A program made the position numbers and the translations under genes. From Candidatus Eiseniibacteriota bacterium (lineage in GTDB: Bacteria > Eisenbacteria > RBG-16-71-46), in the NCBI GenBank assembly GCA_036522895.1, contig DATDEX010000425.1:1-50715 (forward strand): a stretch of 50,715 bases of DNA, read 5' to 3'. Positions 15,850 through 46,403 of this stretch are shown here, piece after piece. Below the pieces are notes generated by a model that did not search any database, had not been told where the DNA came from, and saw nothing but the letters and a program-made list of their open reading frames with translations. Position 1 is the stretch's first letter. Every line of letters starts with the position of its first letter.

Positions 15850-17238
15850 TCAGCGATGCCGCGGACTCGCTCCCGGCCCCGATCGCTCGAGGACCCAACT
15901 CGTGACGCTCTCGAGGTACCCGGGCGCCGCCCGCGGCCAGTCCCACCTGCCGCCCGCCACGAGCGGGAGCGTGCGAAGCACGTGATTCGCGGCCGGGAAC
16001 ACGCGCACGGTCACGTCGCGGTTGCCGCCCTGGCGGAGCGCGTGCTCGACGAGCCTCGCACTCGGCTTCGCCGGGACCAGCTCGTCGGCGGCGCCGTAGA
16101 CCGCGAGCACGGGCACACGCACGGCACGCCACCACGGGGCCGGATCCAGCGTGCGCCCGCGCCAGTACCAGCCGGCGAGCGCGGCCCCCGAGGGAAGCCG
16201 CTCCGGCAGCGAGCTCGCGCGCCGCCACGGCGTCGTCGCGGCCTCCGCGAGGAGCGCCGAGAGCTCGTTCGAATCGCGTCTGGTGCCGAGCCAGGCCTGG
16301 AGCCGTCGATCGAGCGAGACCGTGCGCTGGATGTCCGCGGCATCGAACCCGGCCGAGGCGAGGCGCATGCTGTCCTGGTACGCCGCGCTCTCGCCGATCG
16401 GCATCCCGGGCGCGGAGATGGCCACGATGAAGCGCAGCGACGGCACCCGCGCGGCGACGAGCGGGGATATGAACGCACCCTGGCTCAGGCCCCACACGCC
16501 GACGCGCTGCGCGTCCACGCCGCGCGTGGCGCGCAGGCACTCGACCGCCGCGGCCGCATCGCCCGCGAGCGTGTCGTACGTGGCGGCGCCGTAGTCCCCG
16601 GAGGATTCGCCGGCCCCGCGCTTGTCGAATGCCAGCACGGCGAGCCCCGCGCGGGCGAAGTGGTCGGCGTAGAAGCGGTAATCGCTCCGGAGATTGGTCG
16701 AGGAGCCCTGGAGGAGGACGATCCCGGCGCGCGGCGCCGGACCCGCGTCCGGCACGTACACCGTTCCGGCGAGCCGGGCCCGCCCACTCGCGAAGCGCAC
16801 CTCGTGCGCCGAGTAGGGCGGCAGGTCGGGCGCGCGTGCGCGGCCCAGCGAGAAGCGGAGCGGCGGTGCGGTGCCGCCCGCTTCCACGACCCCGGGGACC
16901 GCGGGCACCACGGCGGTCCCGCGCAGCGAATCCCCGTTCACTTCGCCCTCGAAACGCAACGGGTGGTCGTCCGTGGTGACGAAACGTACCTGGCGGCCGG
17001 CACTCTCCACGCCCGCGAGCGGCTGCTCGAGCATGAGCAACTCGGGGCTGCTCATCGCCGCCCGCAGCGTCCCGCCCTCCTGGGAGAAGCGGATGCTCAG
17101 ATCCAGGCGCGCGCCCTGGAAGACGGCGCTCCCCCGCCACGTGCCCGCGAGCGATCCGTCCGGCGCGCGCGTGGGCGCCGCGCCGCCCGCGCAGGCGGCG
17201 AGGGCGCAGATCCCGAGCGCACGGCCGATGGCACGCAT
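15850..17238 (-). CDS. Alpha/beta-hydrolase lipoprotein (S9/S15-like serine hydrolase), 462 aa
   Basis: The internal ATG at 17238 gives MRAIGRALGICALAACAGG, which contains a lipobox. The nucleophile elbow is GVWGLSQGA. The fold pattern is typical (VLLQGSS...VLAFDKRGAGES...VPVLAVYGAADELVP...NH). Confidence 0.85.
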   Translation of the reverse strand: MRAIGRALGICALAACAGGAAPTRAPDGSLAGTWRGSAVFQGARLDLSIRFSQEGGTLRAAMSSPELLMLEQPLAGVESAGRQVRFVTTDDHPLRFEGEVNGDSLRGTAVVPAVPGVVEAGGTAPPLRFSLGRARAPDLPPYSAHEVRFASGRARLAGTVYVPDAGPAPRAGIVLLQGSSTNLRSDYRFYADHFARAGLAVLAFDKRGAGESSGDYGAATYDTLAGDAAAAVECLRATRGVDAQRVGVWGLSQGAFISPLVAARVPSLRFIVAISAPGMPIGESAAYQDSMRLASAGFDAADIQRTVSLDRRLQAWLGTRRDSNELSALLAEAATTPWRRASSLPERLPSGAALAGWYWRGRTLDPAPWWRAVRVPVLAVYGAADELVPAKPSARLVEHALRQGGNRDVTVRVFPAANHVLRTLPLVAGGRWDWPRAAPGYLESVTSWVLERSGPGASPRHR

Positions 17239-17264
17239 CGGCTTGAGACTACACGCTCGAGGCC

Positions 17265-17681
17265 TCAGACGAGCCCCGGCGACCTGGCCGGCCGGGCCCG
17301 CGGCCGGCCATCGGGCGAACCCCAGAGGAGGGCCACGACGATGAGCGGATCGACGACGCCCCAGAAGATGCTCGGGAACAGGAACCCGGGATCCTGGGGC
17401 GTGCCGGCGGCGCCCTCGAGTGCCGAGAGCGCGAGCATGAGAAGGTGGTAGGCCGCTCCGGTGCACGCGGCGACGAGCGCGACCCGGCTGCCCCAGCCGC
17501 GTGCGCCCCGGCGCAGCTCCGCGAACATCCCCGTGCCGCCGATCGCCTGCGCGAGCCCCACGAGCAGGAACAGCATGCGCAGGCTCAGCACGTGCGCGAC
17601 CCCGGCGACGAGGCTCGCCCCCAGCGCGAGCTGCCAGGCCATCCGGCGGCGCCGGATCTCTTCCTCGTCGGGGCCGGCCAC
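17265..17681 (-). CDS. Small integral membrane protein, hypothetical, 138 aa
   Basis: There are three to four hydrophobic segments (LALGASLVAGVAHVL, MLFLLVGLAQAIGG, VALVAACTGAAYHLLMLAL and IFWGVVDPLIVVALLW). GTG 17681 lies 4 nt after the TRAP permease stop. The alternative start is ATG 17642. Confidence 0.55.
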   Translation of the reverse strand: MAGPDEEEIRRRRMAWQLALGASLVAGVAHVLSLRMLFLLVGLAQAIGGTGMFAELRRGARGWGSRVALVAACTGAAYHLLMLALSALEGAAGTPQDPGFLFPSIFWGVVDPLIVVALLWGSPDGRPRARPARSPGLV

Positions 17682-17685
17682 GTCG

Positions 17686-19536
17686 CTACTTCCCGAGCAG
17701 CCGGAGGACGCCGACGGTCATCTGCGGCAGATAGGTGATCGCGAGCGTACCCGCGCCGAGGATGAGCAGGAACGGCACGACGTGGCGGTAGAGCTGCGGC
17801 AGCGGTTTCCCGAACCGCGACGAGGACAGGAACAGGTTCAACCCCGCGGGCGGGAACAGGAATCCCAGCTCCAGGTTGGCAAGGAACACCACGCCGAGGT
17901 GCACCGGGTCCACGCCGAAAGCGGCTCCGATCGGGGCGACGAGCGGGGCCAGGATGACGATCGCGGAATAGATCTCGAGCACGCTCCCGAGCACGAGCAG
18001 CACGAGGTTCAAGGCGAGCAGGAACACGTGCTGCGAGTGGATGTGCGCCCGGACGAACGCGAGCAGCGCATCGGGAATCTGCGCGTCCACGAGCCAGCTC
18101 GTGAGCCCGAGCGCGCTCGAGAGCAGGATCAAGACGGCGCCGCAGAGCACGCTCGCCTTCACGAGCACACGGGGGAGCTCGCGGAACGGGTGGATGTCGC
18201 GGGTGACGAAGCACTCGACCCCGATCGCGTACGCGAACGCCACCGCCGCGGCCTCGACCATGGTCGTGAGCCCGGTCGCGAAGAGCCCCACCACGAGGAG
18301 CGGCACCGAGAGCTCCCACTTCGCGGACCAGCCGGCCGCGAGCGCCTCGCGCGCCGAGAACGCCTGGCGCGGGGTCTTGATCCGGCGTCCCACCTGCATG
18401 CCGTAGAGCGCGACGATCAGGATGAGCAGGAGCCCGGGCAGGAGCCCGGCCAGGTAGAGCGAGTCCGCCGGCACGTTCGCGACGACCGCGTAGAGGATCA
18501 CGGGCAGGCTCGGGGGGAGCAGGAGCCCGAGACTCCCCGAGGCGGTGACGAGCCCGAGCGAGAAGCCCTCGGGGTAGCCGTCCTTCAGGAGCACCGGCAG
18601 GAGCAGTCCGCCGAGCGCCATGATCGTGACACCCGAGCCGCCCGTGAACGTGGTGAACAGCGCGCACACCGCGGCCACGAGCACCGCCACGCCGCCCGGG
18701 AGCCAGCCGAAGAGCGCGCGGAAGAACCGCACGAGCCGCTGCGAAGCGTTGGATTCCGCGAGGACGTAGCCGCACGCGGTGAGGAGCGGGACCGCGGGCA
18801 GCGTGGGCGAGGACATGAGCCGGTAAATGTCGGCGCTCACCGCCGAGACGGGCACGCCGTCGCGAAAGAACAGCACGAGCGCGATGCCGCCCATGGCCAC
18901 GAACACCGGCGCGCCGACGAGCGCCGCGAGCAGGATCAGACCCACGAGCGGCAGGGCGATCGAGTGCGCCGCCCCGTGGAGCAGGCCGAGCGACAGCCCG
19001 GCCGGAATCGCCGCGTAGGCGAGCGTCCTCCCCCGCCAGCCCTCCGAGGCGGCCCAGGCGAGGCGCAGCGCGAGCAGCGCGAGCGCGAGCGGCATGACGC
19101 ACTCGCTCACCCAGACCGGGACGCCGATGGCGAGGAGTTTCCCCTGCTCGCGATCGGCGAGCACCACGCCGTAGGCGGAATACGCGAGCACCGCGCAGAC
19201 CGCGGCGGCGATCGCCGACGAGAACACGCGCGCCGCGTCCCGGACTTTCGCCTTGCCGATCGCCTCGGCGGTCGAGAGCGTGAGGTGCTGGCGCTGGCGT
19301 GCGGCGAGGAGCCCGCCGAGGAGCGCGAGCCAGAGCGTGAGCTGGGCGCGGTACTCGGACGAGCCGGGCACGCCGAAGCCGCCGAACGGCCGCCCGAGCG
19401 CATCGACGAGCGGGATCAGCATCGACAGCAGGAAGGCGACGACCAGCACGCCGCCTTCGAACCGGTGCACGAACGAGTAGAGGCGGCCCGGCGGGTGACG
19501 CTGCGCGGCCGTGTGCATGGGCGCGCACACTAGCAT
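17686..19536 (-). CDS. TRAP transporter fused small/large permease (DctQ-DctM fusion), 616 aa
   Basis: The N-terminal ~170 aa form a DctQ-like four-TM segment. A long polytopic DctM-like region follows (FTGGSGVTIMALGGLLLPVL, GSLGLLLPPSLPVILY, EIYSAIVILAPLVAPI and FLFPPAGLNLFL). Confidence 0.9.
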   Translation of the reverse strand: MLVCAPMHTAAQRHPPGRLYSFVHRFEGGVLVVAFLLSMLIPLVDALGRPFGGFGVPGSSEYRAQLTLWLALLGGLLAARQRQHLTLSTAEAIGKAKVRDAARVFSSAIAAAVCAVLAYSAYGVVLADREQGKLLAIGVPVWVSECVMPLALALLALRLAWAASEGWRGRTLAYAAIPAGLSLGLLHGAAHSIALPLVGLILLAALVGAPVFVAMGGIALVLFFRDGVPVSAVSADIYRLMSSPTLPAVPLLTACGYVLAESNASQRLVRFFRALFGWLPGGVAVLVAAVCALFTTFTGGSGVTIMALGGLLLPVLLKDGYPEGFSLGLVTASGSLGLLLPPSLPVILYAVVANVPADSLYLAGLLPGLLLILIVALYGMQVGRRIKTPRQAFSAREALAAGWSAKWELSVPLLVVGLFATGLTTMVEAAAVAFAYAIGVECFVTRDIHPFRELPRVLVKASVLCGAVLILLSSALGLTSWLVDAQIPDALLAFVRAHIHSQHVFLLALNLVLLVLGSVLEIYSAIVILAPLVAPIGAAFGVDPVHLGVVFLANLELGFLFPPAGLNLFLSSSRFGKPLPQLYRHVVPFLLILGAGTLAITYLPQMTVGVLRLLGK

Positions 19537-19579
19537 GCCCCCGCGGGCCGGCGGGTGCCGCGCGCGCGGCGCGCGGCGC

Positions 19580-20749
19580 TTACGGCTGCGGCTTCACCGT
19601 GAACTCCGCGGAGGCCCGGGTCGTGTCCCAGTCGAGGTTCAGCACGCCGCCGCTCGAGGTGGGATCGACGCTGATCGTAAATCGCTCCACCACTTGCGGT
19701 AAGCTGCTCACTTTCATGTCGATCGTGAACAGGTCCCTGGCCGGGTTGTGCTGCGTCCCCCACTGCCCGGTCTCGCCGTTCACGATGAGCTTCCAGCCCG
19801 CGGCCGAGGGCAGCGACCAGAGCGTGTAGAAGCCGGCGGGCACGACGGTGCCGCCGAAGTCGAGTGGCTTGTCCGTGCGGAACTGCGTCGCGGCATTGGC
19901 GCCCGTGCGCCACACCTCGCCGTAAGGCACGAGCGCCGCCCCGAACACCGCACGCCCGCGCTTGGCCGGGCGCCCGTAATCGATCGTGATCGCCGCGCCG
20001 CCCGCGTTCGTCACCCGCACGGTGTCGCGCGGCGACAGCGTACCCACGCCCTGGCCGGCCTGCTCGCGCGCCATGTAGCCGTTCGCGAGCGCGTCGACGT
20101 CGAGCGAGGCCACGCGGGTGATGCCGAACTTGGCCGTCCCGGCCACCGGGAGCGTGCCCAGGATGTGCCCTGCCTTGTCCACGGCCGCGTGGTAGACGTC
20201 ACCGTGCGTGTCGGAGATCTCGACGGAATCGCGGCCGAGCTTCCGGAGCAGGAAGCGCTCGGGTGACGGGAAGCCCACGATGTAGAGCGGGCCCCCGAGC
20301 GTGTCCGGCCTGGCCTTCACGAGCTTCATGATCTGCCCTTCGTAAACCGCCCACGGGCTCGAGCTGAAGAGCAGGAGCGCTCCGAGCGAGAGTCGCTGGT
20401 GGGTCACCTGGGGCGCCGCGCTGCCGTTCTTGATCTCGACGCGCAGCGAGTCGCCCTCGTACGCGACCTCGGCGGTCTGGAGCGGCGCGGCCGCTCCCGG
20501 CGGCGTGGCGACGATCGAGACGTGGGTGATCGCGCCGTCCTTCATGTCGTACGTGAAATGCCGGCGGAGCGTCCGCGGCGCGCGCCCGACCTGGTCGATC
20601 TCCAGCCGATTCGCGGTGCGCACGTAGTGCTCGACGCTCGTCGTGTCGAGGCCCAGCCGCACGACGAAGTTGCCGGTGTCGTCCGCCCGTGCGGGAACCG
20701 CGAGGACGAGCAGCAGGGACAGCGTGGCGAGTGGCGAAACGCGCTTCAT
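19580..20749 (-). CDS. Secreted protein with a C-terminal DUF2911 domain, 389 aa
   Basis: ATG 20749 has GAGGAG 8 nt upstream. The signal peptide is MKRVSPLATLSLLLVLAVPARA. The C-terminal half carries the DUF2911 signature IDYGRPAKRGRAVFGALVPYGEVWRTGANAAT...GFYTLWSLP...WKLIVNGETGQWGT. Confidence 0.75.
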   Translation of the reverse strand: MKRVSPLATLSLLLVLAVPARADDTGNFVVRLGLDTTSVEHYVRTANRLEIDQVGRAPRTLRRHFTYDMKDGAITHVSIVATPPGAAAPLQTAEVAYEGDSLRVEIKNGSAAPQVTHQRLSLGALLLFSSSPWAVYEGQIMKLVKARPDTLGGPLYIVGFPSPERFLLRKLGRDSVEISDTHGDVYHAAVDKAGHILGTLPVAGTAKFGITRVASLDVDALANGYMAREQAGQGVGTLSPRDTVRVTNAGGAAITIDYGRPAKRGRAVFGAALVPYGEVWRTGANAATQFRTDKPLDFGGTVVPAGFYTLWSLPSAAGWKLIVNGETGQWGTQHNPARDLFTIDMKVSSLPQVVERFTISVDPTSSGGVLNLDWDTTRASAEFTVKPQP

Positions 20750-23621: not shown

Positions 23622-26600
23622 TTAGTACCGGCTCTGCGCGCGCAGGAACCAGCCGCGCGAGGTGTCCTGGTTGCGGACCAGCGGATCGCCGGAGAACCGG
23701 CTGAAGTTGTAGCCGATCCCGAAGCGCACGTGCTGGCCCGGATCGTACGAGAGCTCCTGCAGCCAGCCGCCACGCGTGTCCGCGGCCTCGCGCTGCTCGA
23801 GCAGGCGATACTCGACCCCCAGCCGGAACGGCTGCTGGGCGATGCGATAGTCGAGCCGGCTCGCCCACATCGTGCTGTGCGCGGTGCCGAGCGGCAGGCC
23901 GCTCCTCCCGCTCTGGTCCAGCCGGGCGGCACCCTTCGCCGCCCACTCGAGGCCGGGGAACACGCGAACGGTCGCCTCGAGCGCCGCCACCCCGAGCACG
24001 GACGCGGTCCCGAGCGAATCCCCCGGCTCCGGCCCGCGGCGGTCGGCGAGGCGCGTCCAGCGGCCGAGCGCCTGGACGGCGTCCGAGCGCGGCGCACGCC
24101 AGGCGAGGCCGACGCTGCTCTCCGTGAACCGGTTCGGCGTCGTGTACATCTGCTCCAGTCGCCGCGACATGCTCATGCGCAGGTCGGTGAGCACGGTGAA
24201 GCCGCTCGGGAGCGCCAGCTCGAGGCGCGTCGCGGACAGCATCTGCCGGCTGTAGGTGCTTCCGAGCATGCGCCGCGCCTCCGCCCGGCTCGAGCCCGAG
24301 AGCGGCGAGTTGCCCTTGTACGCGATCTGGCCGGAGATCGTGCCGTGCTGGCCCGAGTCCCCGCCACGCGTGCCGTGCTCGCCCGCGACGTTGAGCGAGA
24401 GACCCTCGGCGTTGTGCCAGCCCTGCTCGATGCCCGTGACCGACACCCCGTGATCTCCGAGCGGGTCGCGCTGCCACTGGTATTCCGAGTAGACCCGGCT
24501 CTCCGGGCCGAGCGGAGCCTGCATGCCGAACAGCGTCCCGCCGCGGAGTCCCGTCGTCGACTGCGCCTGCTCCTCGCGCACGTAGAACTGCCGCGCGCCG
24601 ACGCTCATCGTCGCGCCGCCGCGGATCGTCTTGCCCTGGTCGCCGGTGGAGCCGCGCGCCTCGAGTGCCAGCGTCGGCAGCGCCCGCCACTCGAGCGCGA
24701 GCGCGGACTGGCTCGCCTTCTCGCCGGCGAACGTCTGCTGGTGCTCCACCGTGGTCTTCACGCGCTCGACGGGCTTCCACCAGAGCCGCATCGCCCCGGT
24801 GCTGTTCTTGTCCGTCGGGTCGAGCACGCGCGTCGTGTTGCGCTGCTCGAACTCCGTCGCCGCGCCGGTCCGCGCGCCGTCCACCCGCCACTGCATGCCG
24901 TAGACGTCGGTGCCGTCGATCTGGCCCAGCTGGTTCATCTCCGGCCGCGTCTCGCGGTCGAATCGGCCCGAGAGGAGGCCGTACCGGCCCGCGCTCAGCT
25001 GGCCGCGTACGCCGGAGCGATCGAGCGCCACGCCCGCCCGCTCGCCGTCGCTCAAGAAACCGGCGTCGACGCGACGCACGTAGCCGCTCACCGAGGCGAG
25101 GCCCGGCCGGTGGAGCCATTGGCCGAGGTCCACCTCGGCGGCGGTCTTCCAGGCCAGCCCCTCGTTCGTGTTGGCGGAGTCCGCCTCGTTCCACGCCAGC
25201 CCGCCGTCGGTACTGACGAACGAACGGCCGGTGTGGCCGTGGCTCGTCGCGAGCTCGCCGAGCAGGCGAGTGCCGTGCCCCATGTTGAGCGTGAGGTCGG
25301 TGCCGCGCAGGCGGTAGTCGCCGTCACCCGAGCGATCGTCCACGACGGTCGAGCCGAGCGTGAGCTTGTCGCCCACGTTCTGGGTGATGCGGCCGCCGGC
25401 GGCGGTCTTCTCGCCGCCGTGGCCGGCGGTCTCGTAGTCGACCTCGATCGTCACCGGGTGGCCCTGGAGCCGGCCGCTCCCGATCACACCGCCGTCGTCC
25501 CAGACGCTGGCGATCGGACGCGTGAACTGCACCCGGCCCTCGAACTCCTTCACCACGACGTCGATGCCGGAGCGCTGCGGAACGCGCGCGAGCTGGAGCC
25601 CGGTGTTGCGATCGCGAACGACCAGCGTGACCTGCGCGCTCCCCTCCAGCACGTCGCCGTGGCTCAGGTAGTAGAGCGTGCCGCCCGTGGCCTCGAGCAC
25701 GTCGTGCACGTGCACGTGGGATGCCTCGGCGCCGAACAGCGCCACCGAGGTGCCGCTCGCGATGTTCTGCACGCCGGCGGCCTTGCCGAAGCCCATCTGC
25801 GCACCGTAGAGCGTGCGGTGGAAGCCCGCGAGCTCGACGTCGTTCAACGCGATCGGGAAGTTGCCGAGCGAAGCGCGCACCGCCTCGCCCTGGAGGCCGA
25901 CGTAGAGCCGGCCGCCGGAGAGGCTGCTGTTCTGGACCGAGCCGGAGTCCCCGAAGACCGGGTACAGGCGATCCGGGTCGAGGTTCGTGAGCAGCCGGTC
26001 GCGGCCGGCGTCGTCCAGGTTCTTGAACAGCGAGTTGAAGTCGCGCCGCCGCGAGTCGAACGCCGACGTGACCAGGTAGCGGCCGGAGATCCAGCCGCGC
26101 AGGTTCCACGCCAGCCGGCCCTCGGTGTAGGTCTCCTTGTCGCCACCGGGGCGCAGGAACGCGGCGCCGCTCGAGCGGCCCACGACCCCGTCCGCGAGGC
26201 CGACGAGGAACATCTGCGGCGAGCGCACCTCGAGGTCGCGCTCGATCGACGACGTGCGGCCCTTGTCGTCCACGACGCTCACGTCGAGGTGGTTGTTGCC
26301 CTCTGCGAGCATCAGGCGGTGGCTGAACGAGCCGTCGCCGTTCACCGCCACGGTGTCGCGGTTGACGACGAGGCGGTAGCCGGCGTGCGTGTGGCCCGCG
26401 AGCGTGAGCGCCGGCGACTTGAGCGCGACACCCTTGGGGGGCAGGAACAGGCTCAGCTCGGGGATGGCATCCACCGCCACGACCGGCGTGCCGTCCGCCT
26501 CGCGGTCCGCGACCTGCACGGTCACGTGCGTGAGGTTGCTCATCCCCGTGGCGTCGTGCGCCATGACGGAGATCGTGTTCTCCCCGACATGGAGCGCGAC

Positions 26601-29600
26601 CTGGGAGGTGAATCCGCCATCGGCGCCGACCGCGACCTTGCGGCCGTTCACCTCGACCACCGCGGAGGAGTCCGTGCGCCCGCGCACCTGCGTCCACGCC
26701 ACGGGCCGATCGCCCGCCGCGCCGTCCGTGCTCGCGAGCGGGACGCCGCCGCCGCTGGAATCCGCGGCGTGGCTCGCCAGCTTCACGTCCGCCGAGGCCT
26801 GGCCGAACGGCAACCGGACCTCGCCGCGAGGCGAGAGGATGTCGAGTCGGGGCAGGCGGACGTGCCCGGCGGAGACCCGGCCGAGGTTGTCCACGAGCGC
26901 CACCTCGAGCGTGTCACCGCCCGGATGGGGCACCGACGTCGCGAACCGGCCGGCCCGGTCCACGGGGACCGCGAGCGAGCCCAGTCGCACCGCCGGGTAG
27001 TGCGGCGCGAACGCCGGCGGCGTCACGGTGGTGCCCGTCGCGTGCACCGGGATCGTGATGCCGTTGATCGTCAGCTCGGAGTGCGTCGTGTTGCCCGCGA
27101 GGTCGAGGATGCCCTCGGGCTCGGTGGCGGACACGGCGAGGCCGTTGCCGCCGGCGCGTCCCACCGCGACGGTGTCGCGCGGGAACGCCACGCCGAAGCG
27201 CACGCTCGAGAGGAGACCGGGCGCGATCGTCACCAGCGTCGAAGCGTCCGTCGTGGGAATCGCGGCGGCGCCGAGCCCGGGCACGTCGAGCTTGACCGCG
27301 CGCGGGCCGGATTCGAGGTCCGGCACGTGGAACATGCCCATCGCGTCGGTCGTCACCGAGGTGCCGTCGTCCATCACCACGCGCGCGCCGGCGATGCCAG
27401 GCTCGTTCGCGGCCTGCTGCCCGTCCCGGTTCTTGTCCTCGAAGACGCGGCCGAGCAGCGTGCTGCGCGTGAAGAGCTCGTTGTCCTCGACGTGGACCAC
27501 CGCGGACACCGGGACCGCCGACGAGCAGGTATCGCAGCCGCTCGTGGCGCTCACCCGGTCCAGGTAGCTCCCCGACGAAGCGCCGGCGCCGGCCACGAGC
27601 TGCCAGCGGAACTCCGCGTAGCCGGGCTCCCCGGGACCCGCGATGCCGTCCCCGTTCCGGTCCACGAACCCGTCGAGGTGCGCGAGCGGCAGCGTCTGCA
27701 CGGGGCCGCCCTGGTCGGCGATCACCTGGCCGTTCCGCATGAGCGTGCCCTTGATCGCGGCGAAGCGGACGGGCAGCGTGTGGGTGAGCGTGATGGCGTC
27801 GATCGGCAGTGAAGTGCGGTTGCGCACGCTCAGCCGGAAGCCGACGGGCTGGCCCTGCTGGACCTTGTCGCGGTCGGGTACCAGCTCGAGCACGATGTTC
27901 GAGCCGTCCTGGTCGTCGCGGTTCACGAGGCTCACGTCGGCCGGATCGAGTCCCGCGTATTCCGGATCGGCGCTCTGGACGACACCGTTCGCGACCTGGT
28001 AGGGCACATCGCCGTCGGGGAGCGCGTCGTCCACGCCCGTGACGGTCACGACCTGCGGCGTGTTCCAGTCGCCCGGGCTGAACGTGAGGCTCGGCGCGGA
28101 CACGATGCCCTCGCTGACGTCGCTGCTCGTGATCGGGATCACGACGTCGGCCGTGGGCTGGCTCCGGAGCACGACGCTGTAGGTGGCGGTGCCCCCCGCC
28201 TCGGTCGTCACGAGGCCCGCGACCGGGGAGACGAACACGCCGATCGAATCGTCGTCCGTGTTGCTCGCCGAGACGTCCGCGGGGTCGAGGCCGGCGTAGC
28301 GGGCGTCGGTGCTGGCCGCGGCGCCGGTGACTATCGTGTAGGCGATCGTTCCGTCGACCACGGCATCGTTGACGCCGCGGACCGTGACCGTCTGCGGGGC
28401 GCTCCAGTTCGCGGACGTGAACGTGAGGCTCGCGGTGGACACGGTGCCCTCGGCCGGGTTGCTGCTCGAGAGCGGGATCGTCACGTCGGCGGTGGGCTGG
28501 CTCGTGAGCACCACGAAGAACGCCGCGGCCCCTCCCGCCTCGCTCGTGACCAGACCGGCGACCGGGTTGACCGTGATCCCCGCGGCGTCGTTGTCCGTGT
28601 TGCTCGCCGACACGTCGGCCGGATCCATGCCGTTGTAGACCGGGTCCGCGCTCGCGGCCGCACCGGTCACGATCGTGTAGGCGATGTTGCCGTCCTGGAC
28701 CTGGTCGTCGACACCGGTGACCGTGACGGTCCGGGCGACGTTCCAGTTGGCGGCGGTGAACGTGAGGCTCGCGGGCGAGACGCTGCCCTCGGCCGGGTTG
28801 CTGCTCGAGATCGGGATCACCACGTTCGCAGTCGGCTGGGTCTGGAGCCGCACGGTGAACGTGGCGGTCCCGCCCCACTCGGCCGTGACCAGGCCGGCCG
28901 TCGGCGTCACGGTGATGCCCGCGACGTCGTTGTCCGTGTTGGTCGCGGAGACGTCCGCGGGATCGACGCCGGCGTAAACCGGGTCGGCGCTCGCGGCCGG
29001 GGAGAGCACGATGGTGTACGCCACGTCGCCGTCCTTCACCTGGTCGTCGACGCCCGTGACGGTGACGGTCTGGGCGACGTTCCAGCTCGCCGCGGTGAAC
29101 GTGAGGCTCGCGGCCGAGACGCTGCCTTCAGCCGGGTTGCTGCTCGCGATCGGGATCGTCACGTCGGCCGTCGGCTGGCTGAAGAGCCTGACCGTGAAGC
29201 TCGCGGTGCCGCCGGCCTCGGTCGTCACGAGGCCCGCGACGGGCGTCACGCTGACGCCCGAGGCGTCGTTGTCCGTGTTCGTGGCCGCCACGTCGGCGGC
29301 GTCCATTCCGGAGTAGCGCGGGTCGCTGCTCGTCGCGGCCGCGAGCACGATCGTGTAGGCGATGTCGCCGTCCTTCACCTGGTCGTCGACGCCCGTGACC
29401 GTGACGGTCTGGGCCGTGTTCCAGTTCGCCGCGGTGAACGTGAGGCTCGACGTCGACGCGGTCCCCTCGGCCGGCTTGCTGCTCGTGACCGGGATCACCA
29501 CGTTCGCCGTGGGCTGGCTCGTGAGCACGACCGTGAACGTCGCGGTGCCGCCGGCCTCGGTCGTCACGAGGCCCGCGGTCGGCGTGACCGTGATGCCCGC

Positions 29601-32600
29601 GACGTCGTTGTCGGTGTTCGTGGCCGAGACGTCGGCCGGGTCCATGCCGGCGTAGCGCGGATCGGCGCTCGCCGCCGCGGCGAGCACGACCGTGTACGCC
29701 ACGTCCCCGTCCTGCACCTGATCGTCGACGCCGGTGAGCGTGACGGGCTGGGCGACGCTCCAGTTCGCGGCGGTGAACGTGAGGCTCGCGGTCGAGACCG
29801 CGCCCTCGGCGGGGTTGCCGCTCGTGACCGGGATCGCCACGTTCGCCGTGGGCTGGCTCGTGAGCACGACCGTGAACGTCGCGGTGCCGCCGGCCTCGGT
29901 CGTCACGAGGCCCGCGGTCGGCGTGACCGTGATGCCCGCGACGTCGTTGTCGGTGTTGCTCGCGGAGACGTCGGCCGGGTCCATGCCGGCGTAGCGCGGG
30001 TCGCCGCTGGCCGCGGCGGCGAGCTGGATCGTGTAGGCGATGTTGCCGTCCTGGACCTGGTCGTCGACGCCAGTGACCGTGACGGTCTGGGCGACGTTCC
30101 AGTTGGCCGTGCTGAACGTGAGGCTCGCGGTCGAGACCGTGCCCTCGGCCGGGTTGCTGCTCGCGACCGGGATCGCGACGCTCGCGGTCGGCTGGCTGTT
30201 GAGGCGCACCGTGAAGCTGGCGGTCCCGCCGGCCTCGGTCGTCACGAGGCCCGTGGTCGGCGTGACCGTGATGCCCGCGGCGTCGTTGTCGGTGTTCGTC
30301 ACCGACACGTCGGCCGGGTTCGTGCCGGAATAGCGCGGATCGGTGCTCGTCGCCGCGCCGAGGACGATCGTGTAGGCGATGTTGCCGTCCTGGACCTGGT
30401 CGTCGACGCCCGTGACGGTGACGGTCCGGGCAACGTTCCAGTTCGCGGCGGTGAACGTGAGGCTCGGGGCCGAGACGGTGCCCTCGGCCGGGTTGCTGCT
30501 CGCGACCGGGATCACCACGTTCGCCGTCGGCTGGCTGTCCAGGCGCACCGTGAACGTCGCCGTGCCGCCGCTCTCCGTCGTCACGAGCCCGGCGGTCGGC
30601 GCGACCGAGATCCCGGCCGTGTCGTCGTCGAGGTTCGTCACGGCCACGTCGGCGGCGTTCCGGCCGCTGTAGTTCGGGTCCGTGCTGGTCGCGGCGGCGG
30701 TCGCGATCGTGTACGCGATGTCGCCGTCGTCGAGCGCGTCGTCGATGCCCGTGACGGTGGCGGTCTGGGGCACGTTCCAGTTCGCGGCGGTGAACGTGAG
30801 GCCCGCCGGGGCCACCCTGCCCTCGGTGGGGTCCGCGCTCGAGAGCCCGATCGAGACGTCGGCCGTGGGCTGGCTCGTGAGCACGACCGTGAACGAGGCG
30901 GTGCCCCCGGCCTCGGTCGTCACGAGGCCGGCGACCGGCGTGACCGTGATGCCCGCGACGTCGTTGTCGGTGTTCGTGACCGCGACGTCCGCGGGGTCCT
31001 GTCCGGAGTACTTCGCGTCGCCGCTCGCGGCGGCGGCGAGGACGATCGTGTAGGCGATGCTGCCATCCTGCACCTGGTCGTCGACGCCCGTGACCGTGAC
31101 CGTTTGCGGGGTGTTCCAGTCCGCCGCGGTGAATGTGAGCGTCGCCGCGGACGGCACGCCCTCCGCGGGCTTGCTGCTCGAGACCGGAATCACCACGTTC
31201 GCGGTCGGCTGGCTGTTCAGCCGCACGGTGAACGTGGCGGTGCCCCCGGCTTCCGTCGTCACGAGCCCGGCGGTGGGCGTGACCGTGGTGCCGGCCGTGT
31301 CGTCGTCCCGGTTCGTCGCGGAGACGTCGGCGGCGTCGGCGCCGCTGTAGTTGGGATCGGTGCTCGTGGCAGCCCCGGTGGCGAGCGTGTAGACGACGTC
31401 GCCGTCGTCGACCGCGTCGTCCACGCCCGTCACCGTGATCGTCTGCGGAATGCTCCAGTTCGCGGTCGTGAACGTCACGCTCGCCGGCGCGACCGAGCCC
31501 TCTGCGGGGTTGCTGCTCGAGACCGGGATCACCACGTTGGCCGTGGGCTGGCTCCCGAGCACGATCGTGAACGTCGCGGTGCCGCCGGCCTCCGTGGTCA
31601 CGAGGCCGGTGAGCGGGGCGACGGTGATGCCGGGCGCGTCGTCGTCGGAGTTCGAGACCGCGACGTCCGCGGCATCCCGGCCGGAGTAATTCGCGTCGCT
31701 GCTCGTCGCGGCGGCGAGCACGACGTGGTAGGCCACGTTGCCGTCGGCGATCGCGTCGTCGACGCCGGTGACCGTGACCGTCTGTGGCTGGTTCCAGTCC
31801 GCGGGCGTGAACGTCAGCGAGGCCGGGGCGGCGACGCCCTCGGTCGCATCGTCGCTCGCGACCGGGATCACGACGTCGGCGGCGGGCTTCGAGTCGAGCC
31901 GCACGGTGAACGTGGCGGTGCCGCCGGCTTCCGTCGTCACGAGCCCGGCGGTCGGGGCGACCGTGATGCCCGCGACATCGTTGTCCGTGTTGGTCGCGCT
32001 CACGTCGGCGCCGTCCTTCCCCGCGTAGACGGGGTCGGAGCTCGTCGCGGGCTCGACCGCGACCGTGTAGGCGACGTCGCCGTCCACCGCGGGGTCGTCG
32101 ACGCCGGTGACCGTGACGGTCTGCGGCGCGTTCCAGTCGGAAGCCGTGAACGTGAGGCTCGCCGGGGAGACACTGCCCTCGGCGGGGTTGCCGCTCGAGA
32201 CCGGGATCACCACGTCCGCGACCGGCTGGCTCGTGAGCCGCACGGTGAACGTCGCGGTGCCGCCGGCCTCGCTCGTCACGAGGCCCGCCGTGGGCGTGAC
32301 CGTGATGCCCGCTACGTCGTTGTCGGTGTTCGTGACCGCGACGTCGGCGGGGTCCTGCCCGGCGTAGTTGGGGTCGGCGCTGGTCGCGGCGGCGAGCACG
32401 ATGGTGTACGGCCGGTCGCCGTCCTGGACCGCGTCGTCGACCCCGGTGACTGTGACGGTCTGGGGCGTACTCCAGTCGGACGCCGTGAACGTCAGGCTCG
32501 CCGGCGCCGAGGTCCCTTCCGCGGCGTCGCTCGAGGCGACCGCCACCGCGACGTCCGCGGTGGGCTGGCTCGTGAGCACGACCGTGAACGTCGCCGTGCC

Positions 32601-35600
32601 GCCCGCCTCGGTCGTCACCAGCCCCGCCGTGGGCGAGACGGTGATGCCCGCGGCGTCGTTGTCGGTGTTCGTGACCGCGACGTCCGCGGGATCCTGCCCG
32701 GCATAGCCGGCGTCCGCGCTCGTCGCGGCGGCGAGCACGATGTGGTAGCCGACGGTGCCGTCGGCGACGAAGTCGTCCGCGCCGGTGACCGTGACCGTCT
32801 GCGGCGTGCTCCAGTCGGCCGCCGTGAACGTCAGGCTCGCCGGGGCGGCCGTGCCCTCCGTGGCGTCGTCGCTCGCGACCGCGATGGAGACGTTCGCCGT
32901 GGGCTGGCTCGCGAGCTTCACGGTGAACGTCGCCGTCCCCCCCGCCTCGCTGGTGACGAGGCCGGCCGTGGGCGTCACGTCGACGCCGACGGCGTCGTTG
33001 TCGGTGTTGGAGGCGCCGACGTCCGCGGGGTCGTAGCCCGAGTAGTGCGGATCGGAGCTCGTCCCCGCGCCGATCGTGATGGTATAGGCCACGGTGCCGT
33101 CGGCGACGAAGTCGTCCGCGCCCGTCACCGTGACGGTCTGCGGGACGTTCCAGTCGGCGGCCGTGAACGTGAGGCAGGCCGGGGCGGCCGTGCCCTCGCT
33201 CGCATTGCTGCTCGAGACGGGGAACGTGACGTCCGCCGAGGGCTGGCTCGTGAGCACGAGCGTGAAGGTCGCCGTCCCGCCGGCTTCGCTCGTCACGAGG
33301 CCCGCCGTGGGCGTCGGCGTGGCGCCCGCCACGTCGTCGTCGGTGTTCGTGACGCCCACGTCGGCGGGGTCGTAGCCCGTGTAGCCGGCGTCGGCGCTCG
33401 CGACCGCGCCGGTGACGATCGTGTAGGCCTGATCGCCGTCGACCGCGGAATCGTCGACGCCCGTCACGGTGACCGTCTGGGGCACGTTCCAGTCCGCCGA
33501 CGTGAACGTGAGGCTTGCCGGGGACACGGTGCCCTCGGCCGGGCGACTGCTCGTGAGCGTGAAGCTCGCGTCGGCGGACGGCTTGCTCGTCAGCCGGGCG
33601 GTGAACGTCGCGGTTCCGCCCGCCTCGGTGGTGACGAGGCCCGCGCCCGGCGTCAGCGTGACGCCGACCCCGTCGTCGTCCGTGTTCGTGACCCCCACGT
33701 CGGCGGCATCCAGCCCGGAATAGTGCACGTCGGCGCTGGTGGCGGCGCCGGTCGTCACGTTGTAGGCCTGGTTGCCGTCGGCGACGGCGTCGTCGACGCC
33801 GGTCACCGTGACCGTCTGCGGCACGTTCCAGTTGACCCCGGTGAACGTGAGGCTGGCCGGGGCGACCGTGCCCTCGGCGGTGTTCGTGCTGGCGAGCGGG
33901 AGCGAGACGTCGGCGTCGGGTTGCGTGTCGAGCCGCACCGTGAACGTCGCGGTCCCGCCGCCCTCGGTCGTGACGAGACCGGTGGTCGGCGCGACCCGGA
34001 TCCCGGCGACGTCGTTGTCGGTGTTCACCACGCTGATGTCCGCGCCGTCGCGGCCCGAGTAGTGCGAATCCGAGCTCACCGCCGGCTGGACCTGGATCAC
34101 GTAGGGCTGATCGCCGTCGATCCTGAAGTCGTCCACGCCGTGGATCGTCACGGTATGCGGCAGGTTCCAATCCGCGGGCGTGAACACGACGCTCGCCGGC
34201 GAAGGCGTGCCCTCGGCGGGCTTCGTGCTCACGAGCGGGATCGTCACCGTCGACGTGGGCTGCGACTGGAGCACGATCGTCGCCAGCGCGCTGTCGCCCG
34301 ATTCGCTCGTCACGAGCCCGGACGTCGGGCTCACGATGATCGCCGCGGCATCCGCGGCGAGCATCGCGTTGGAGAACTCCGAGGTGTTCGAGAAGTCGAG
34401 CGACGTGGCGGTCACGGTGACCGCCTCGCCGATCGCCACGTTCGCCGCGAAGGTCGTGTCGAACGGCGCGCTGCCCGCGCCGTCCGACGCCACGTCCGTC
34501 GAACCCAGGTAGCGTTCGCCCTCGCCGTTCCCGCTCGGGTCGCCCGTCGCGCTCGCGAAGTATTCGAGCCGGAACGACGAGTTGGGCTCGCTCGCGAGCG
34601 TGCCCTGCACGCGGAGCGTCGTCCCGCCCGTCCGGACCAGCGTCAGCACGGGGAAGTTCTGAAGATCGTTCGCGCCGGTGTCCGCGTCGAGCGGGTCGTT
34701 CGCCGTGATGCCGTCGTTGCCGAGGTCGATCCCCAGCGCGCCGTTCGTGCCGATCGCGTTTCCGAGGACCATGTTCCCGTTGCCCGCGGCGGGGTCGAAG
34801 GCCACGCCGGCACCGCCGTTGTGCGCGATCAGGTTGCCCTCGCCCGCGTTCACCCCGCCGATGGCGAGGTTCGAGCCCCCGAAGCCGCCCGAGACGAGCA
34901 GCCCGTGGCCGGTGTTTCCGAGCGCGAGCGAGCGGCTCGCGTCCATGCCGATCGTGTTCCCCACGAAGCGATTCGCGAAGCCGGACATGCGCACGCCCAC
35001 CCCGGTGTTGCCGGAGACGACGTTCCCATCGCCTGCGCCGGATCCGCCGATCGTGAGGTTGTCGCCGTCCACCTCGAGCCCGGCGCTCGCCGGGACCAGG
35101 CTGCCGTTCGGGATCCCCGAGGAGCCCGCGGCGTTCGTGCCCACGTAGTTGCCGCGGAGCGAGCCGCCGGACGTCGTGGACAGGACGCGGATGCCGTTCG
35201 CGCCGTTCCCCGAGACGACGTTCCGGGTCTGTGCCGTGGAGCCGCCGACGATGACGCCGTCCGCGCCCACCTGGAGGCCGTCGACATGGTTCGCGAGCGC
35301 GGCCGTGCCGGTCGGGTCGAGCCCGATCCAGTTGCCGGAGACGATCCCGCCCGCGCCGGAGATCACGACGCCGCTACCGCCGAAGCCGCCGAGCGCGAAG
35401 CCGCGCACCTCGCAGCCCGGGGCGAGGATCTCGATCCCATTGCTCCCGGCGCCGGCGGCGGTGCCGTCCACGGCCACGACCGGGGAGCTGATCCAGCCCG
35501 GCTGCCGCTGCGCGTCGAGCACGAGCGATTCGGTGATCTTGGGGAGCGCGGCGGTGAGCGCGATCCGCGCGACGCCGCCCGTAAAGTAGTTGAGCGAGGC

Positions 35601-42038: not shown

Positions 42039-42101
42039 GGGCACTCTCCTGTGGGTGGGTGCAGCGGGGAACGACGGCTCAGGGATACCAGCGTTGGGGG
42101 C

Positions 42102-42695
42102 TCAGTTCCAGCCGCCCGCTCGCGCGAGGTCCTTGTGGCAGCGGGCACACTGGGGGCGCACCGCGTCCGCGTGCAGCCACGTCCGGGCCGCCTCCCCCCC
42201 GCCGCGGTGCACCTGGTGACAGGCCACGCACGCGAGCTTCAAGCCGCTGTGGTCGCCCAGCTCGTGGAACTTGTCGGTCTCCTCGGCGGTGCCGGAGCCG
42301 TGGACCTGCCTCGCGTGGCACTTGAGGCACGCCTCGTTGGTGATTGGCAGCCGCATGGTTGTGGGCTCGTGCCGATCGCCCGCGATCCACCGGGCGGCAT
42401 CCCAGGCCGAAAGCAGCGTGACCTCGGTCCAGCCGCCGACGCCTTCGCCGCTGTGGCAGGTGAAGCAGCGCTCGGGGTGGCCGCCCCGCCGGGCGGCGTG
42501 GTGCGCGCCCGCCAGCGTCAGCGCCGGGCTCGCGGTCATGGTCTTGAGGAGCTCGCCGTGCAGGTGGCAGGCCACGCAGAACCCGTTCTCCTGGTCGAGC
42601 CGCTTGACGAGCGCGACCGGCAAGGCGACGGCGACGAGCACGATCGGGAGCCAGCGCCAGGCACGGACGGTTCGGGCGGGATCGGACGTCGGCAT
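42102..42695 (-). CDS. Membrane-anchored pentaheme cytochrome c (NapC/NirT/NrfH-like topology), 197 aa
   Basis: There is an N-terminal TM helix, WRWLPIVLVAVALPVALV. Five CxxCH motifs follow: CVACH, CFTCH, CLKCH, CVACH and CARCH. I confirmed CARCH on the DNA near 42130. Confidence 0.85.
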   Translation of the reverse strand: MPTSDPARTVRAWRWLPIVLVAVALPVALVKRLDQENGFCVACHLHGELLKTMTASPALTLAGAHHAARRGGHPERCFTCHSGEGVGGWTEVTLLSAWDAARWIAGDRHEPTTMRLPITNEACLKCHARQVHGSGTAEETDKFHELGDHSGLKLACVACHQVHRGGGEAARTWLHADAVRPQCARCHKDLARAGGWN

Positions 42696-42776
42696 CGGGT
42701 GCGGTGGACTCCGGGACGGGCGCGGACCGGGCGCGCGGACGGCGGCACGGCACGATAGCACAGCGGCGACAGCCCG

Positions 42777-43910
42777 CTACCGGAGCGCGAACTCCCAGCG
42801 CGCGCGCAGCTCGACGCCGAACTGCTCCTGGTCGAAGTTCGTCTGCGCGGCCGGGAACGTGATTCCCTGGTGGAACTCGGCCCGGCTGATGAGCCGCTCC
42901 CAGGTCGCGACGGCGTCGAGCGGTCCCCACACCCGCTGGGTGAGCCTGAGTCGTGTGTCGCGGCGGTGGTTCTCGCGGCCGAAGCGCAGGATGTCGAACT
43001 TGTTGTCGGTCGTGTAGCGGCGGACTTCCGGCATGAACGAGCCGTCGAACCGCCCGCGCCACGCGCCCCGCCCCCAGGGCAGCGCGAGCGAAATGCCGAC
43101 GCCGTCATGATCGTAGGAGATGTCCGTGTCGGTGACCCCGAGCGTGTCGGGCAGGTCGCCGCGGGCGTTCAGGTCCCCGCGCAGCCAGGTCACGCGCGCC
43201 GAGCCGTCCCAGCCCCGGAACGGCGTCGCCTCCGCCTGGAGCCGCCAGGAGTCGTTGTCGTTCATGCGCTCGAGGAAATGCCGGTTGTACTCGCGGTGGA
43301 TCCGCTCGAGCGCGCCGCCGAACTCGAGCCGCCCGCGCAGGAGCTCCTGGCGAAGCCGGAGCCCGTAGGTCGTCTGGGCGTATGAAAGCGAGTGCCGCAC
43401 CGTGCGTCCGGCAGCGACGGATTCGTCGATGTCGGTGATCTCGCCCAGGTAGTAGTCGGGGACCCGCCCGCCATAGAGCTCCGCCGTCAGCGGCCGCCGC
43501 CGCGAGGCGGTCAGCTCCTGCGAGGCCGAGAGCTCGAGCTCCTGCCAGTCGAAGACGCGGTCGTGATCGTAACGGTGGAATGCCGCGTCGAGGTCGAGTC
43601 GCGTCTCGCGCCGATCCCAGGGTCGCGCCCGCCACCGCAGCGAGCCCCGGGCGATCGTCGCCATGTCGCCCACCTGGGAGATGAGGAAGCGCGGCGGACC
43701 CGGACGGCGGGTGAAGAGATCGAGGGTCTGCCGCGTGAGCTGCAGCACGTTGTCGTCGTGCCCGCGCCCGAGCGAAAAGTTGAAGCCGAGCGGCGAGCGC
43801 CCGACGGACGCGCGGCGCGGCGGCGCTCCCGGCTCGGCCGCACGGGCGATCGCGGCCGCCGACGTTCCCACGAAGAGACAGACTGCCACGCAGAGCGCGC
43901 GTGTGCGCAT
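42777..43910 (-). CDS. Secreted protein, putative outer-membrane beta-barrel, 377 aa
   Basis: ATG 43910 has GGAG 9 nt upstream. The signal peptide is MRTRALCVAVCLFVGTSAAAIARA. There are many short amphipathic alternating stretches (RLRLTQRVWG and FGVELRARWEFAL). The C-terminal residue is Arg rather than aromatic, so the barrel call is tentative. The upstream ORF extension to 44282 was rejected. Confidence 0.7.
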   Translation of the reverse strand: MRTRALCVAVCLFVGTSAAAIARAAEPGAPPRRASVGRSPLGFNFSLGRGHDDNVLQLTRQTLDLFTRRPGPPRFLISQVGDMATIARGSLRWRARPWDRRETRLDLDAAFHRYDHDRVFDWQELELSASQELTASRRRPLTAELYGGRVPDYYLGEITDIDESVAAGRTVRHSLSYAQTTYGLRLRQELLRGRLEFGGALERIHREYNRHFLERMNDNDSWRLQAEATPFRGWDGSARVTWLRGDLNARGDLPDTLGVTDTDISYDHDGVGISLALPWGRGAWRGRFDGSFMPEVRRYTTDNKFDILRFGRENHRRDTRLRLTQRVWGPLDAVATWERLISRAEFHQGITFPAAQTNFDQEQFGVELRARWEFALR

Positions 43911-44019
43911 GGCGGATTGCTCCGAGAGCGTGTGGCGGAGCATGTGGCCGGACGGGTGACGGAGGCTGTGGCGGACTCGGTCGGGGGACGGGGCCTCTGC
44001 CGCAGGGGTCGCGCGCACG

Positions 44020-46287: not shown

Positions 46288-46403
46288 GCGGGAACCCTTT
46301 TCCTCGGGAGCGGAGCGAGATGCCGATCGACCGCCGGGCCCGCGGCCGGGCCGGCGAGGGGTGACGGCGCGGCCGGCGGGGAGCCGATCGCGCCGGGTGA
46401 AGC

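Follow-up and report, generated by a model that had tools for sequence, protein, structure and literature searches.

To our knowledge, the routes by which diderm bacteria export giant surface proteins (type 1, type 5 and type 9 secretion) all have recognisable signatures. The nearest described logic is that of type Va autotransporters, in which a Sec signal, a long beta-helix passenger and a C-terminal, aromatic-ended 12-strand barrel (PF03797) form one chain that needs no separate partner. In these, a linker segment occupies the barrel lumen once the passenger has crossed. Two-partner systems (type Vb) divide the task between a cargo, TpsA, and a barrel protein, TpsB; inverse autotransporters (type Ve, intimin and invasin) hold a peptidoglycan-binding domain, a barrel, an Ig-like rod and a tip in one protein. 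Here we describe a 12.7-kb gene on the minus strand (23622-36350) of a 50,715-nucleotide (nt) stretch of DNA from a Candidatus Eiseniibacteriota bacterium (GenBank assembly GCA_036522895.1, contig DATDEX010000425.1, positions 1 to 50,715; the window hereafter). The gene takes up 25% of the window and encodes a product of 4,242 amino acids (aa). We propose, with a probability of roughly 0.55, that this giant protein is exported by Sec and then stays anchored in the outer membrane, permanently, through a C-terminal barrel of its own, of about 40 predicted strands, much as an autotransporter would. Giant surface proteins influence how cells adhere, build biofilms and touch one another, and the barrel family to which this protein belongs marks an annotation gap: it is very common, it carries none of the type 1, 5 or 9 signatures, and neither Pfam nor NCBIfam has a model for its barrel.

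Set against these systems, the giant protein comes closest to type Va, since a Sec signal and a passenger N-terminal to the barrel are found in a single chain. The barrel itself differs: it is about three times larger than the 12-strand PF03797 barrel and has no sequence similarity to it, the C-terminal 863 aa giving no Pfam match even at E=5, and type Va has no counterpart to the Ig modules (and, in relatives, the OmpA domain) that sit between passenger and barrel. By analogy, the protein may be regarded as autotransporter-like in logic, with a barrel apparently unrelated to any type V barrel. Inverse autotransporters share with the family the combination of wall-binding domain, barrel, Ig-like rod and tip, and Big_1 and Invasin_D3 domains even occur in some passengers of the family, but their 12-strand barrel is N-terminal and accompanied by LysM, whereas here a barrel of about 40 strands, with no matching Pfam family, is C-terminal and accompanied by an OmpA-type domain that the window protein lacks. 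The type 1 giant adhesins (LapA, SiiE, MpIBP) are also a poor fit: the protein has a Sec signal and a C-terminal barrel, HemolysinCabind gave no match, and the adjacent resistance-nodulation-division (RND) pair is not an ATP-binding cassette (ABC) system. As for type 9 cargo, no Por_Secre_tail-type Pfam or NCBIfam model matched, and the C-terminus is occupied by the barrel.

The predicted C-terminal barrel and its family

The proposed attachment is suggested first by the C-terminal module:

23625-26213, minus strand: C-terminal module of 863 aa (aa 3380-4242), predicted outer-membrane beta-barrel of about 40 strands, ending ...GWFLRAQSRY (AlphaFold2, Foldseek, hydrophobicity)

The AlphaFold2 (AF2) model of this module, computed from a 30-sequence alignment, is all-beta; it has about 41 long strand elements, antiparallel to one another, besides a small beta-sandwich insert at module residues ~155-245 (predicted local distance difference test, pLDDT, 75.5; predicted template modelling score, pTM, 0.71). 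Hydrophobicity alternates along the strands, as it should in membrane beta-strands. Foldseek returned large outer-membrane barrels only (SprA, LptD, SlpA, TonB-dependent transporters and MtrB), with template modelling (TM) scores of 0.14-0.26. In fold class the modelled module is clearly an outer-membrane barrel, one without a close structural relative, and the secondary structure and confidence of the model put its strand number at an estimated 38-42. Sequence searches gave no further lead: NCBIfam had no match to the whole giant protein, and among PDB sequences the module found no match in a single-sequence search and only a chance match (E 1.1) in a profile search with a 14-sequence alignment (A2).

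By the usual barrel geometry, a 40-strand barrel would be an estimated 7-8 nm across, backbone to backbone. If the predicted number is true, the barrel would be bigger than the largest solved single-chain barrel, that of SprA, whose 36 strands were still called the largest known in a March 2026 preprint. SprA, the type 9 translocon, was the top Foldseek match and is likewise a very large single-chain barrel, with a lumen that passes folded proteins, but the two align at a TM score of only 0.16 and share no sequence similarity; SprA is also a separate protein from its cargo and has a different number of strands. Our search of the literature for the domain combination, for barrels of 38-44 strands and for barrel databases returned no description, with one possible exception: a superfamily of single 38- and 40-strand barrels, larger than any solved (families 002 and 003 of that study), whose prediction drew on sequence and contact maps (Solan et al., 2021, PNAS, PMC8346858). 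In the text of that paper these barrels agree with the present family in strand number only, a likeness of description, and the text gives no accessions, domain context or function and mentions neither fusion to a giant passenger nor a conserved stalk.

The most conserved sequence of the module is DLDD.GRDRLLTNLDPDRLYPV[YF]GDS (module residues 55-101; aa ~3434-3480; window ~25911-26051). Judging from the model, this region is perhaps not a barrel strand and could instead serve as a plug, as a calcium site or as a contact site.

The family of the module is very large: profile searching of 1.84 billion representative proteins, clustered at 50% identity, gave 2,689 clusters at E<=1e-30, a number that rises to 4,931 at E<=1e-10. 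Scanning one genome per species with alignment A2, and with LDPD[RK]xYPV and GYNF[TS]xFS[GD][DN] as search patterns, recovered relatives in at least 550 genomes. Cultured carriers include Stenotrophomonas, Lysobacter, Pseudoxanthomonas, Luteimonas, Hydrogenophaga, Variovorax, Halopseudomonas pelagia and a Neisseria; metagenome-assembled carriers belong to Acidobacteriota, Nitrospirota, Omnitrophota, Desulfobacterales and Eisenbacteria. Full-length alignments to the C-terminal module range from 25% to 84% identity. The window protein is a regular member: it matches over the full length of the module, has both motifs and ends in an aromatic residue (Y). The GWFxRAQxRY terminal motif is conserved in the family. 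Of 149 representatives, 123 have an aromatic residue at the last position, and in 128 the module ends within five residues of the C-terminus.

Members span 1,000-7,402 aa and have a common layout, in which a variable passenger is followed by DUF11, SdrD_B, usually OmpA, Ig modules and the barrel. SdrD_B precedes the barrel in 98 of 106 long representatives, and the window protein has this stalk too; the OmpA peptidoglycan-binding domain stands between SdrD_B and Ig in 61 of the 106 and is absent from the window protein, L002, L009, P0034, P0049 and P0072. The passengers draw on Calx-beta, Big_1/Invasin_D3, Big_9, cadherin-like, Laminin_G_3, fn3 and DUF2341 domains. A survey for orthologues with the same N-to-C order, as the preliminary description had proposed, found them at L002, L003, L004 and L009. 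They differ in repeat number (14 in L003, at least 12 in L004, at least 25 in L009); L002 is syntenic with the window, its barrel being 69% identical and a tripartite ATP-independent periplasmic (TRAP) transporter being common to both at 83-94% amino-acid identity. One candidate for a stand-alone short form, P0014 (OmpA, Ig and barrel, 1,368 aa), was rejected as a fragment of a longer, gap-interrupted open reading frame (ORF): at L001:25-5802 this frame extends upstream through a run of N into Calx-beta, DUF11 and SdrD_B and runs off the contig end.

The names given to relatives by NCBI, RefSeq and UniRef are 'hypothetical protein' or 'TonB-dependent receptor' (e.g. Stenotrophomonas P0215, P0228 and P0231). 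The latter label is probably wrong, because these sequences match neither the Plug nor the TonB_dep_Rec model. The preliminary description had recognised no named adhesin family in this domain combination, and none does fit; the protein is nevertheless no orphan: it belongs to a very large family in which the stalk-plus-barrel layout is conserved.

The second line of evidence is a split form. In Xanthomonadales, Hydrogenophaga, Variovorax and other lineages, passenger and barrel are encoded by two adjacent genes; many Pseudomonadota have this form (L060:16-12640 in Stenotrophomonas sp. LGBM10, L029, L039, L053, L056, L061, L064, L074, L075 and others). The barrel protein, of about 1,230 aa, then has its own signal peptide and an Ig-like N-terminal part of about 350 aa, and the giant partner upstream, also with its own signal peptide, ends in SdrD_B and an OmpA-like domain that is often degenerate; the OmpA domain thus lies on one side of the break and the Ig modules on the other. 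The barrel gene often overlaps the giant gene or begins 1-4 nt after it: at most loci its ORF starts anywhere from 156 nt before the upstream ORF ends to 96 nt after that end, and two loci have wider gaps (177 and 472 nt). From these arrangements, Ig modules and barrel appear to behave as a portable partner unit of giant cargo. A giant signal-peptide protein directly upstream of a signal-peptide barrel mirrors TpsA and TpsB, but the barrel family is without a TPS domain, POTRA or the 16-strand Omp85 barrel, and the two systems differ in gene order and in the element beside the barrel, which here is the C-terminal SdrD_B and OmpA-like tail of the cargo. Searches for the TPS, POTRA and Omp85 Pfam families covered the giant protein, the neighbouring genes and the split pair of Stenotrophomonas, and found none. 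The fused and split forms could thus stand in the same relation to each other as autotransporters and two-partner systems, with no type V domain involved.

Tip, shaft and base of the giant protein

In a window of 72% GC, long stop-free frames are common by chance, so that the length of an ORF is in itself weak evidence. The minus-strand frame from 23622 to 36692 is nonetheless taken as coding, because its GC content at third codon positions (GC3) is 0.96 throughout, its translation has 0 internal stops and every part of the protein has homologues. Within this frame the preliminary description had picked the GTG at 36350 as start, which yields MRAAISRLASVALALVLAGSVPLVAQA followed by GRITGTVFED, a typical Sec signal peptide and mature N-terminus. 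The closest N-terminal homologues, P0303-P0305, have a signal peptide and then AAKISGTIFED, which aligns with the mature N-terminus of the giant protein. Three other long ORFs overlap the gene, at 31104-36617 (+), 29128-34170 (-) and 23730-27812 (+), of 1,837, 1,680 and 1,360 aa. These arise from the 72% GC and the repeats and are not genes; a coding-type GC3 of 0.96 is seen only in the giant frame. Promoter and terminator scans at both ends of the gene found none. Upstream of the barrel, the gene is laid out as follows:

36270-36350, minus strand: GTG start and Sec-type signal peptide, aa 1-27 (MRAAISRLASVALALVLAGSVPLVAQA, next residue G) (translation; homologues P0303-P0305)
35766-36269, minus strand: N-terminal beta-sandwich of SdrD_B/CarboxypepD_reg (CnaB) type, aa 28-195 (sub-threshold Pfam, AF2, Foldseek)
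34731-35765, minus strand: right-handed parallel beta-helix, aa ~196-540 (Pfam domains of homologues, AF2, Foldseek)
34347-34730, minus strand: end module of the beta-helix (LGIDLG..G.T.ND..D.D.G.N..QNFPVLT) and beta-sandwich, aa 541-668 (consensus of homologues, AF2)
27906-34346, minus strand: 19 tandem Calx-beta-type repeats of 113 aa each, aa 669-2815 (register and count, Tandem Repeats Finder, Pfam)
27486-27905, minus strand: DUF11-like beta-sandwich, first conserved stalk element, aa 2816-2955 (alignment to P0043)
27156-27485, minus strand: SdrD_B domain, second conserved stalk element, aa 2956-3065 (Pfam E 3e-9 on a tile)
26214-27155, minus strand: linker and Ig-like modules of Glucodextran_B/Big_6 type, aa 3066-3379 (Pfam)
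23622-23624, minus strand: stop codon (ORF list and translation)

The preliminary description, read from the letters alone, had listed a signal peptide, SdrD-B/CarboxypepD_reg-like sandwiches, a parallel beta-helix, a DADTGANDLQNFPVL module, 19 beta-sandwich repeats, DUF11-like and SdrD-B-like domains, Ig-like modules and a very large C-terminal region with an aromatic terminus of outer-membrane-protein type, all in one uninterrupted frame of about 4,240 aa. Domain searches and structure predictions agree that this order is essentially correct, and each element is recovered.

At the N-terminus, the only Pfam match, CarboxypepD_reg, is sub-threshold (E 0.0034), and a single-sequence search of PDB with the N-terminal 670 aa found no match. 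AF2 places sandwich strands at aa 28-122 and 161-194, and Foldseek matches of the N-terminal model include CnaB2 and Bap-type sandwiches. The beta-helix, which begins with GSLRQFLINAN, similar to the CSLREA motif, has no direct Pfam match. It has 455 homologues, many of which bear PF13229 Beta_helix or PF05048 NosD or are named 'CSLREA domain-containing', and those with PF13229 and PF05048 are 35-50% identical to it. With 67 homologues aligned, the tip is modelled at pLDDT 87 and pTM 0.87, and Foldseek ranks beta-helix proteins first: 8wm1 (E 8e-15), followed by phage tailspikes and depolymerases. This beta-helix family ends in the conserved DADTGANDLQNFPVL motif, as the consensus of the 67 aligned homologues and the sandwich that follows it indicate (aa 568-650, pLDDT >90); the same end module precedes the repeats in L003. 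In proteins of other bacteria the beta-helix module accompanies dockerin, SLH and type 9 C-terminal sorting domains, which is why the tip is taken to be of extracellular character.

The shaft is an array of exactly 19 units of 113 aa, free of insertions and deletions (Tandem Repeats Finder: period 339, 17.7 copies). The units match Pfam Calx-beta (PF03160; E 3.2e-18, profile positions 3-118 of 119) and conserve the acidic motifs DDxxxDG and NTDND, and on this sequence basis calcium binding is predicted. Mean nucleotide identity among units is 73%, with a peak of 88%, values that make collapse of repeats in the assembly possible but unlikely. At an estimated length of about 4 nm per Calx-beta-type domain, 19 of them would give a calcium-stiffened rod of about 80 nm. 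The array also has an AT skew of -0.27 (window 29000-33000), against up to +0.34 over the TRAP transporter region (16000-20000). Strand alone does not explain the opposite signs, because both genes lie on the minus strand; amino-acid composition is the likely cause.

At the base, the DUF11-like segment has no direct Pfam match and is identified by its alignment to residues 1177-1298 of P0043 (E 5.7e-19), which overlap the Pfam DUF11 match of that protein at 1172-1246. The Ig modules match Glucodextran_B in two stretches (E 3.7e-24) and Big_6 (E 6.5e-6). At this position most relatives add a FlgD_ig-like and an OmpA domain, and the window protein has neither.

Export, attachment and competing explanations

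The protein can be read as three functional parts: a beta-helix tip, a shaft of 19 Calx-beta domains, and a conserved base made up of the DUF11-like, SdrD_B and Ig modules and the barrel. To judge from the signal peptide, Sec would export the protein to the periplasm, where the machinery for beta-barrel assembly (BAM) could insert the barrel, guided by the aromatic C-terminal signal. The N-terminal passenger would then reach the surface via the wide lumen of its own barrel, and calcium-dependent folding of Calx-beta and SdrD_B domains outside the cell might make the passage irreversible. The Ig modules would remain at the periplasmic mouth of the barrel, as would the OmpA domain in most relatives; the window protein being an OmpA-less variant, the barrel alone would hold it. 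The domain types suggest adhesion, or matrix or carbohydrate binding, as the likely role, with the beta-helix tip engaging a surface or polymer. Surface exposure and translocation through the barrel are both inferred.

The preliminary description had noted that no TpsB, usher or type 1 trio lies next to the gene and had left export and anchoring open. Pfam searches of the neighbours bear out the first point: TpsB, an usher, the type 1 secretion trio and a type 9 signal were all sought among the adjacent genes and none was found. Nothing of the kind need be nearby, because the protein carries its own barrel, and the second point now has an obvious candidate in that predicted structure of about 40 strands. 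We hypothesize more tentatively that the module is itself the translocon of an undescribed secretion and anchoring route: a barrel larger than SprA that would pass and then permanently hold its own (or an adjacent) giant passenger, perhaps already folded, while a periplasmic Ig collar, with OmpA in most members, couples the fibre to the wall. This goes a step beyond attachment, and we regard it as possible rather than probable. Should the barrel conduct the passenger to which it belongs, it would represent a novel parallel, of independent origin, to autotransporters and two-partner secretion, and a type V-like system would exist in thousands of species of Pseudomonadota, Acidobacteriota, Nitrospirota, Omnitrophota, Eisenbacteria and other phyla. 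Cultured Stenotrophomonas, Lysobacter and Variovorax carry the two-gene form, so that, assuming these are genetically tractable, the idea can be tested now.

Several points weigh against attachment with a surface-exposed passenger: (i), the canonical peptidoglycan-binding OmpA domain between passenger and barrel in 61/106 long relatives implies that at least the base is periplasmic, and more of the protein could be so too; (ii), outer-membrane proteins of the ordinary kind have their N-terminal extensions in the periplasm; (iii), in relatives the gene is followed by one for an inner-membrane FecR-like protein with the same Ig type, which points to periplasmic contacts; (iv), the most conserved motif, LDPDRLYPV[YF]GD, sits in the lowest-confidence part of the AF2 barrel model; (v), closure of the barrel, its exact strand number and the filling of its lumen are predictions from the secondary structure and confidence of the model; and (vi), the literature search found no paper with an experiment on any member of the family.

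The first three of these points would be best accommodated by an envelope-internal structural protein, with the barrel in the outer membrane and the whole N-terminal part in the periplasm, acting as a tether or spacer between outer membrane and wall. Such proteins are known: SlpA and OmpM join an N-terminal wall-binding domain to a large C-terminal barrel, and SlpA, with 30 strands, is among the Foldseek matches. They differ in having no giant adhesin-type passenger, in using SLH instead of OmpA and in being trimeric, and the window protein, like its closest relatives L002 and L009, has no wall-binding domain at all. The OmpA domain, where present, does lie directly upstream of Ig and barrel, and the FecR-like gene comes next in 16 related loci. 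A periplasmic location is nevertheless hard to reconcile with passengers of up to 7,402 aa, built of modules of adhesin and lectin type (Calx-beta, Big_9, cadherin, invasin D3, Laminin_G_3), with a beta-helix joined elsewhere to extracellular markers, or with a rod of about 80 nm, which would be too long to span the periplasm. We therefore consider this explanation unlikely, although it deserves the most attention among the alternatives.

Less probable is export by machinery encoded elsewhere (type 9, type 1 or type 2), which would leave the barrel as an anchor only or give it an unrelated role. FlgD_ig-type domains can serve as type 9 sorting signals, and two genes at 44020-48677 end in such domains; an ABC exporter is encoded at 48805-50706. 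The giant protein, however, has a Sec signal and lacks both an RTX or type 1 signal at the C-terminus and a C-terminal domain of type 9, its C-terminus being the barrel, and the fused or adjacent passenger-barrel layout is conserved in groups without type 9 secretion, e.g. Xanthomonadales.

We give slightly less credit still to a transport channel, that is, a TonB-dependent-receptor-like or porin-like importer whose N-terminal part only captures substrate. The NCBI names of several Stenotrophomonas homologues and the TonB-dependent transporters among the Foldseek matches would fit, and passengers of beta-helix and lectin type could bind polysaccharide. Against it, neither the window protein nor the Stenotrophomonas homologue matches Plug (PF07715) or TonB_dep_Rec (PF00593), even at E=5, and NCBIfam gives no match; TonB-dependent transporters align at TM scores of 0.15-0.20 only and have 22 strands, against about 40 predicted here, and a search for TonB/ExbBD genes near the giant gene found none.

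Finally, an assembly artefact or pseudogene (a gene chimera, or a collapsed or expanded repeat array) is very improbable: short reads could mis-join 19 similar units, two of which have an exact word of 103 nt in common, the longest in the array, and a scaffold gap in the relative L001 did produce a mis-called gene fragment, but 12.7 kb run without a stop or frameshift at even GC3, all 19 units keep exactly 113 aa despite a mean nucleotide identity of only 73%, and the independent assemblies L002, L003, L004 and L009 have the identical N-to-C order.

Genomic surroundings

In the window, the giant gene is flanked by a divergent pair for a CusB/HlyD-type membrane fusion protein and an AcrB-type pump, which domain searches identify as the RND pair already named in the preliminary description, by a convergent peptidase S9 gene, and by genes for a DUF2911 protein and the TRAP transporter. 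Many OmpA-containing relatives have two conserved genes after the giant gene (e.g. L001:5768-8997, L003:12540-15733, L005:12465-15730 and about 13-20 further loci): the first encodes the membrane-anchored protein with FecR and a Glucodextran_B Ig domain (16 loci), the second a HAMP/HisKA/HATPase sensor kinase (23 loci). This pairing hints that the barrel system is coupled to signalling. When FecR-like and histidine-kinase partners were searched for in the window, only the Ig domain of the giant protein itself matched.

Two further groups of genes on the minus strand may be recorded. At 44020-48677, two apparently paralogous proteins have 4-5 CarboxypepD_reg domains, SdrD_B-like stretches and the C-terminal FlgD_ig-type domain mentioned above; the listed ORFs overlap, and the true start of the first probably lies further downstream. 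The ABC exporter gene adjoins this pair and reaches the window edge. At 41223-44282, the middle gene of a small cluster (42102-42761) encodes 219 aa with five CXXCH haem motifs. On one side (41223-42044) is a 273-aa protein that has a signal peptide and a single CXXCH motif, and on the other (42777-44282) a 501-aa product for which Pfam gave no match; this cluster may be an electron-transfer module.

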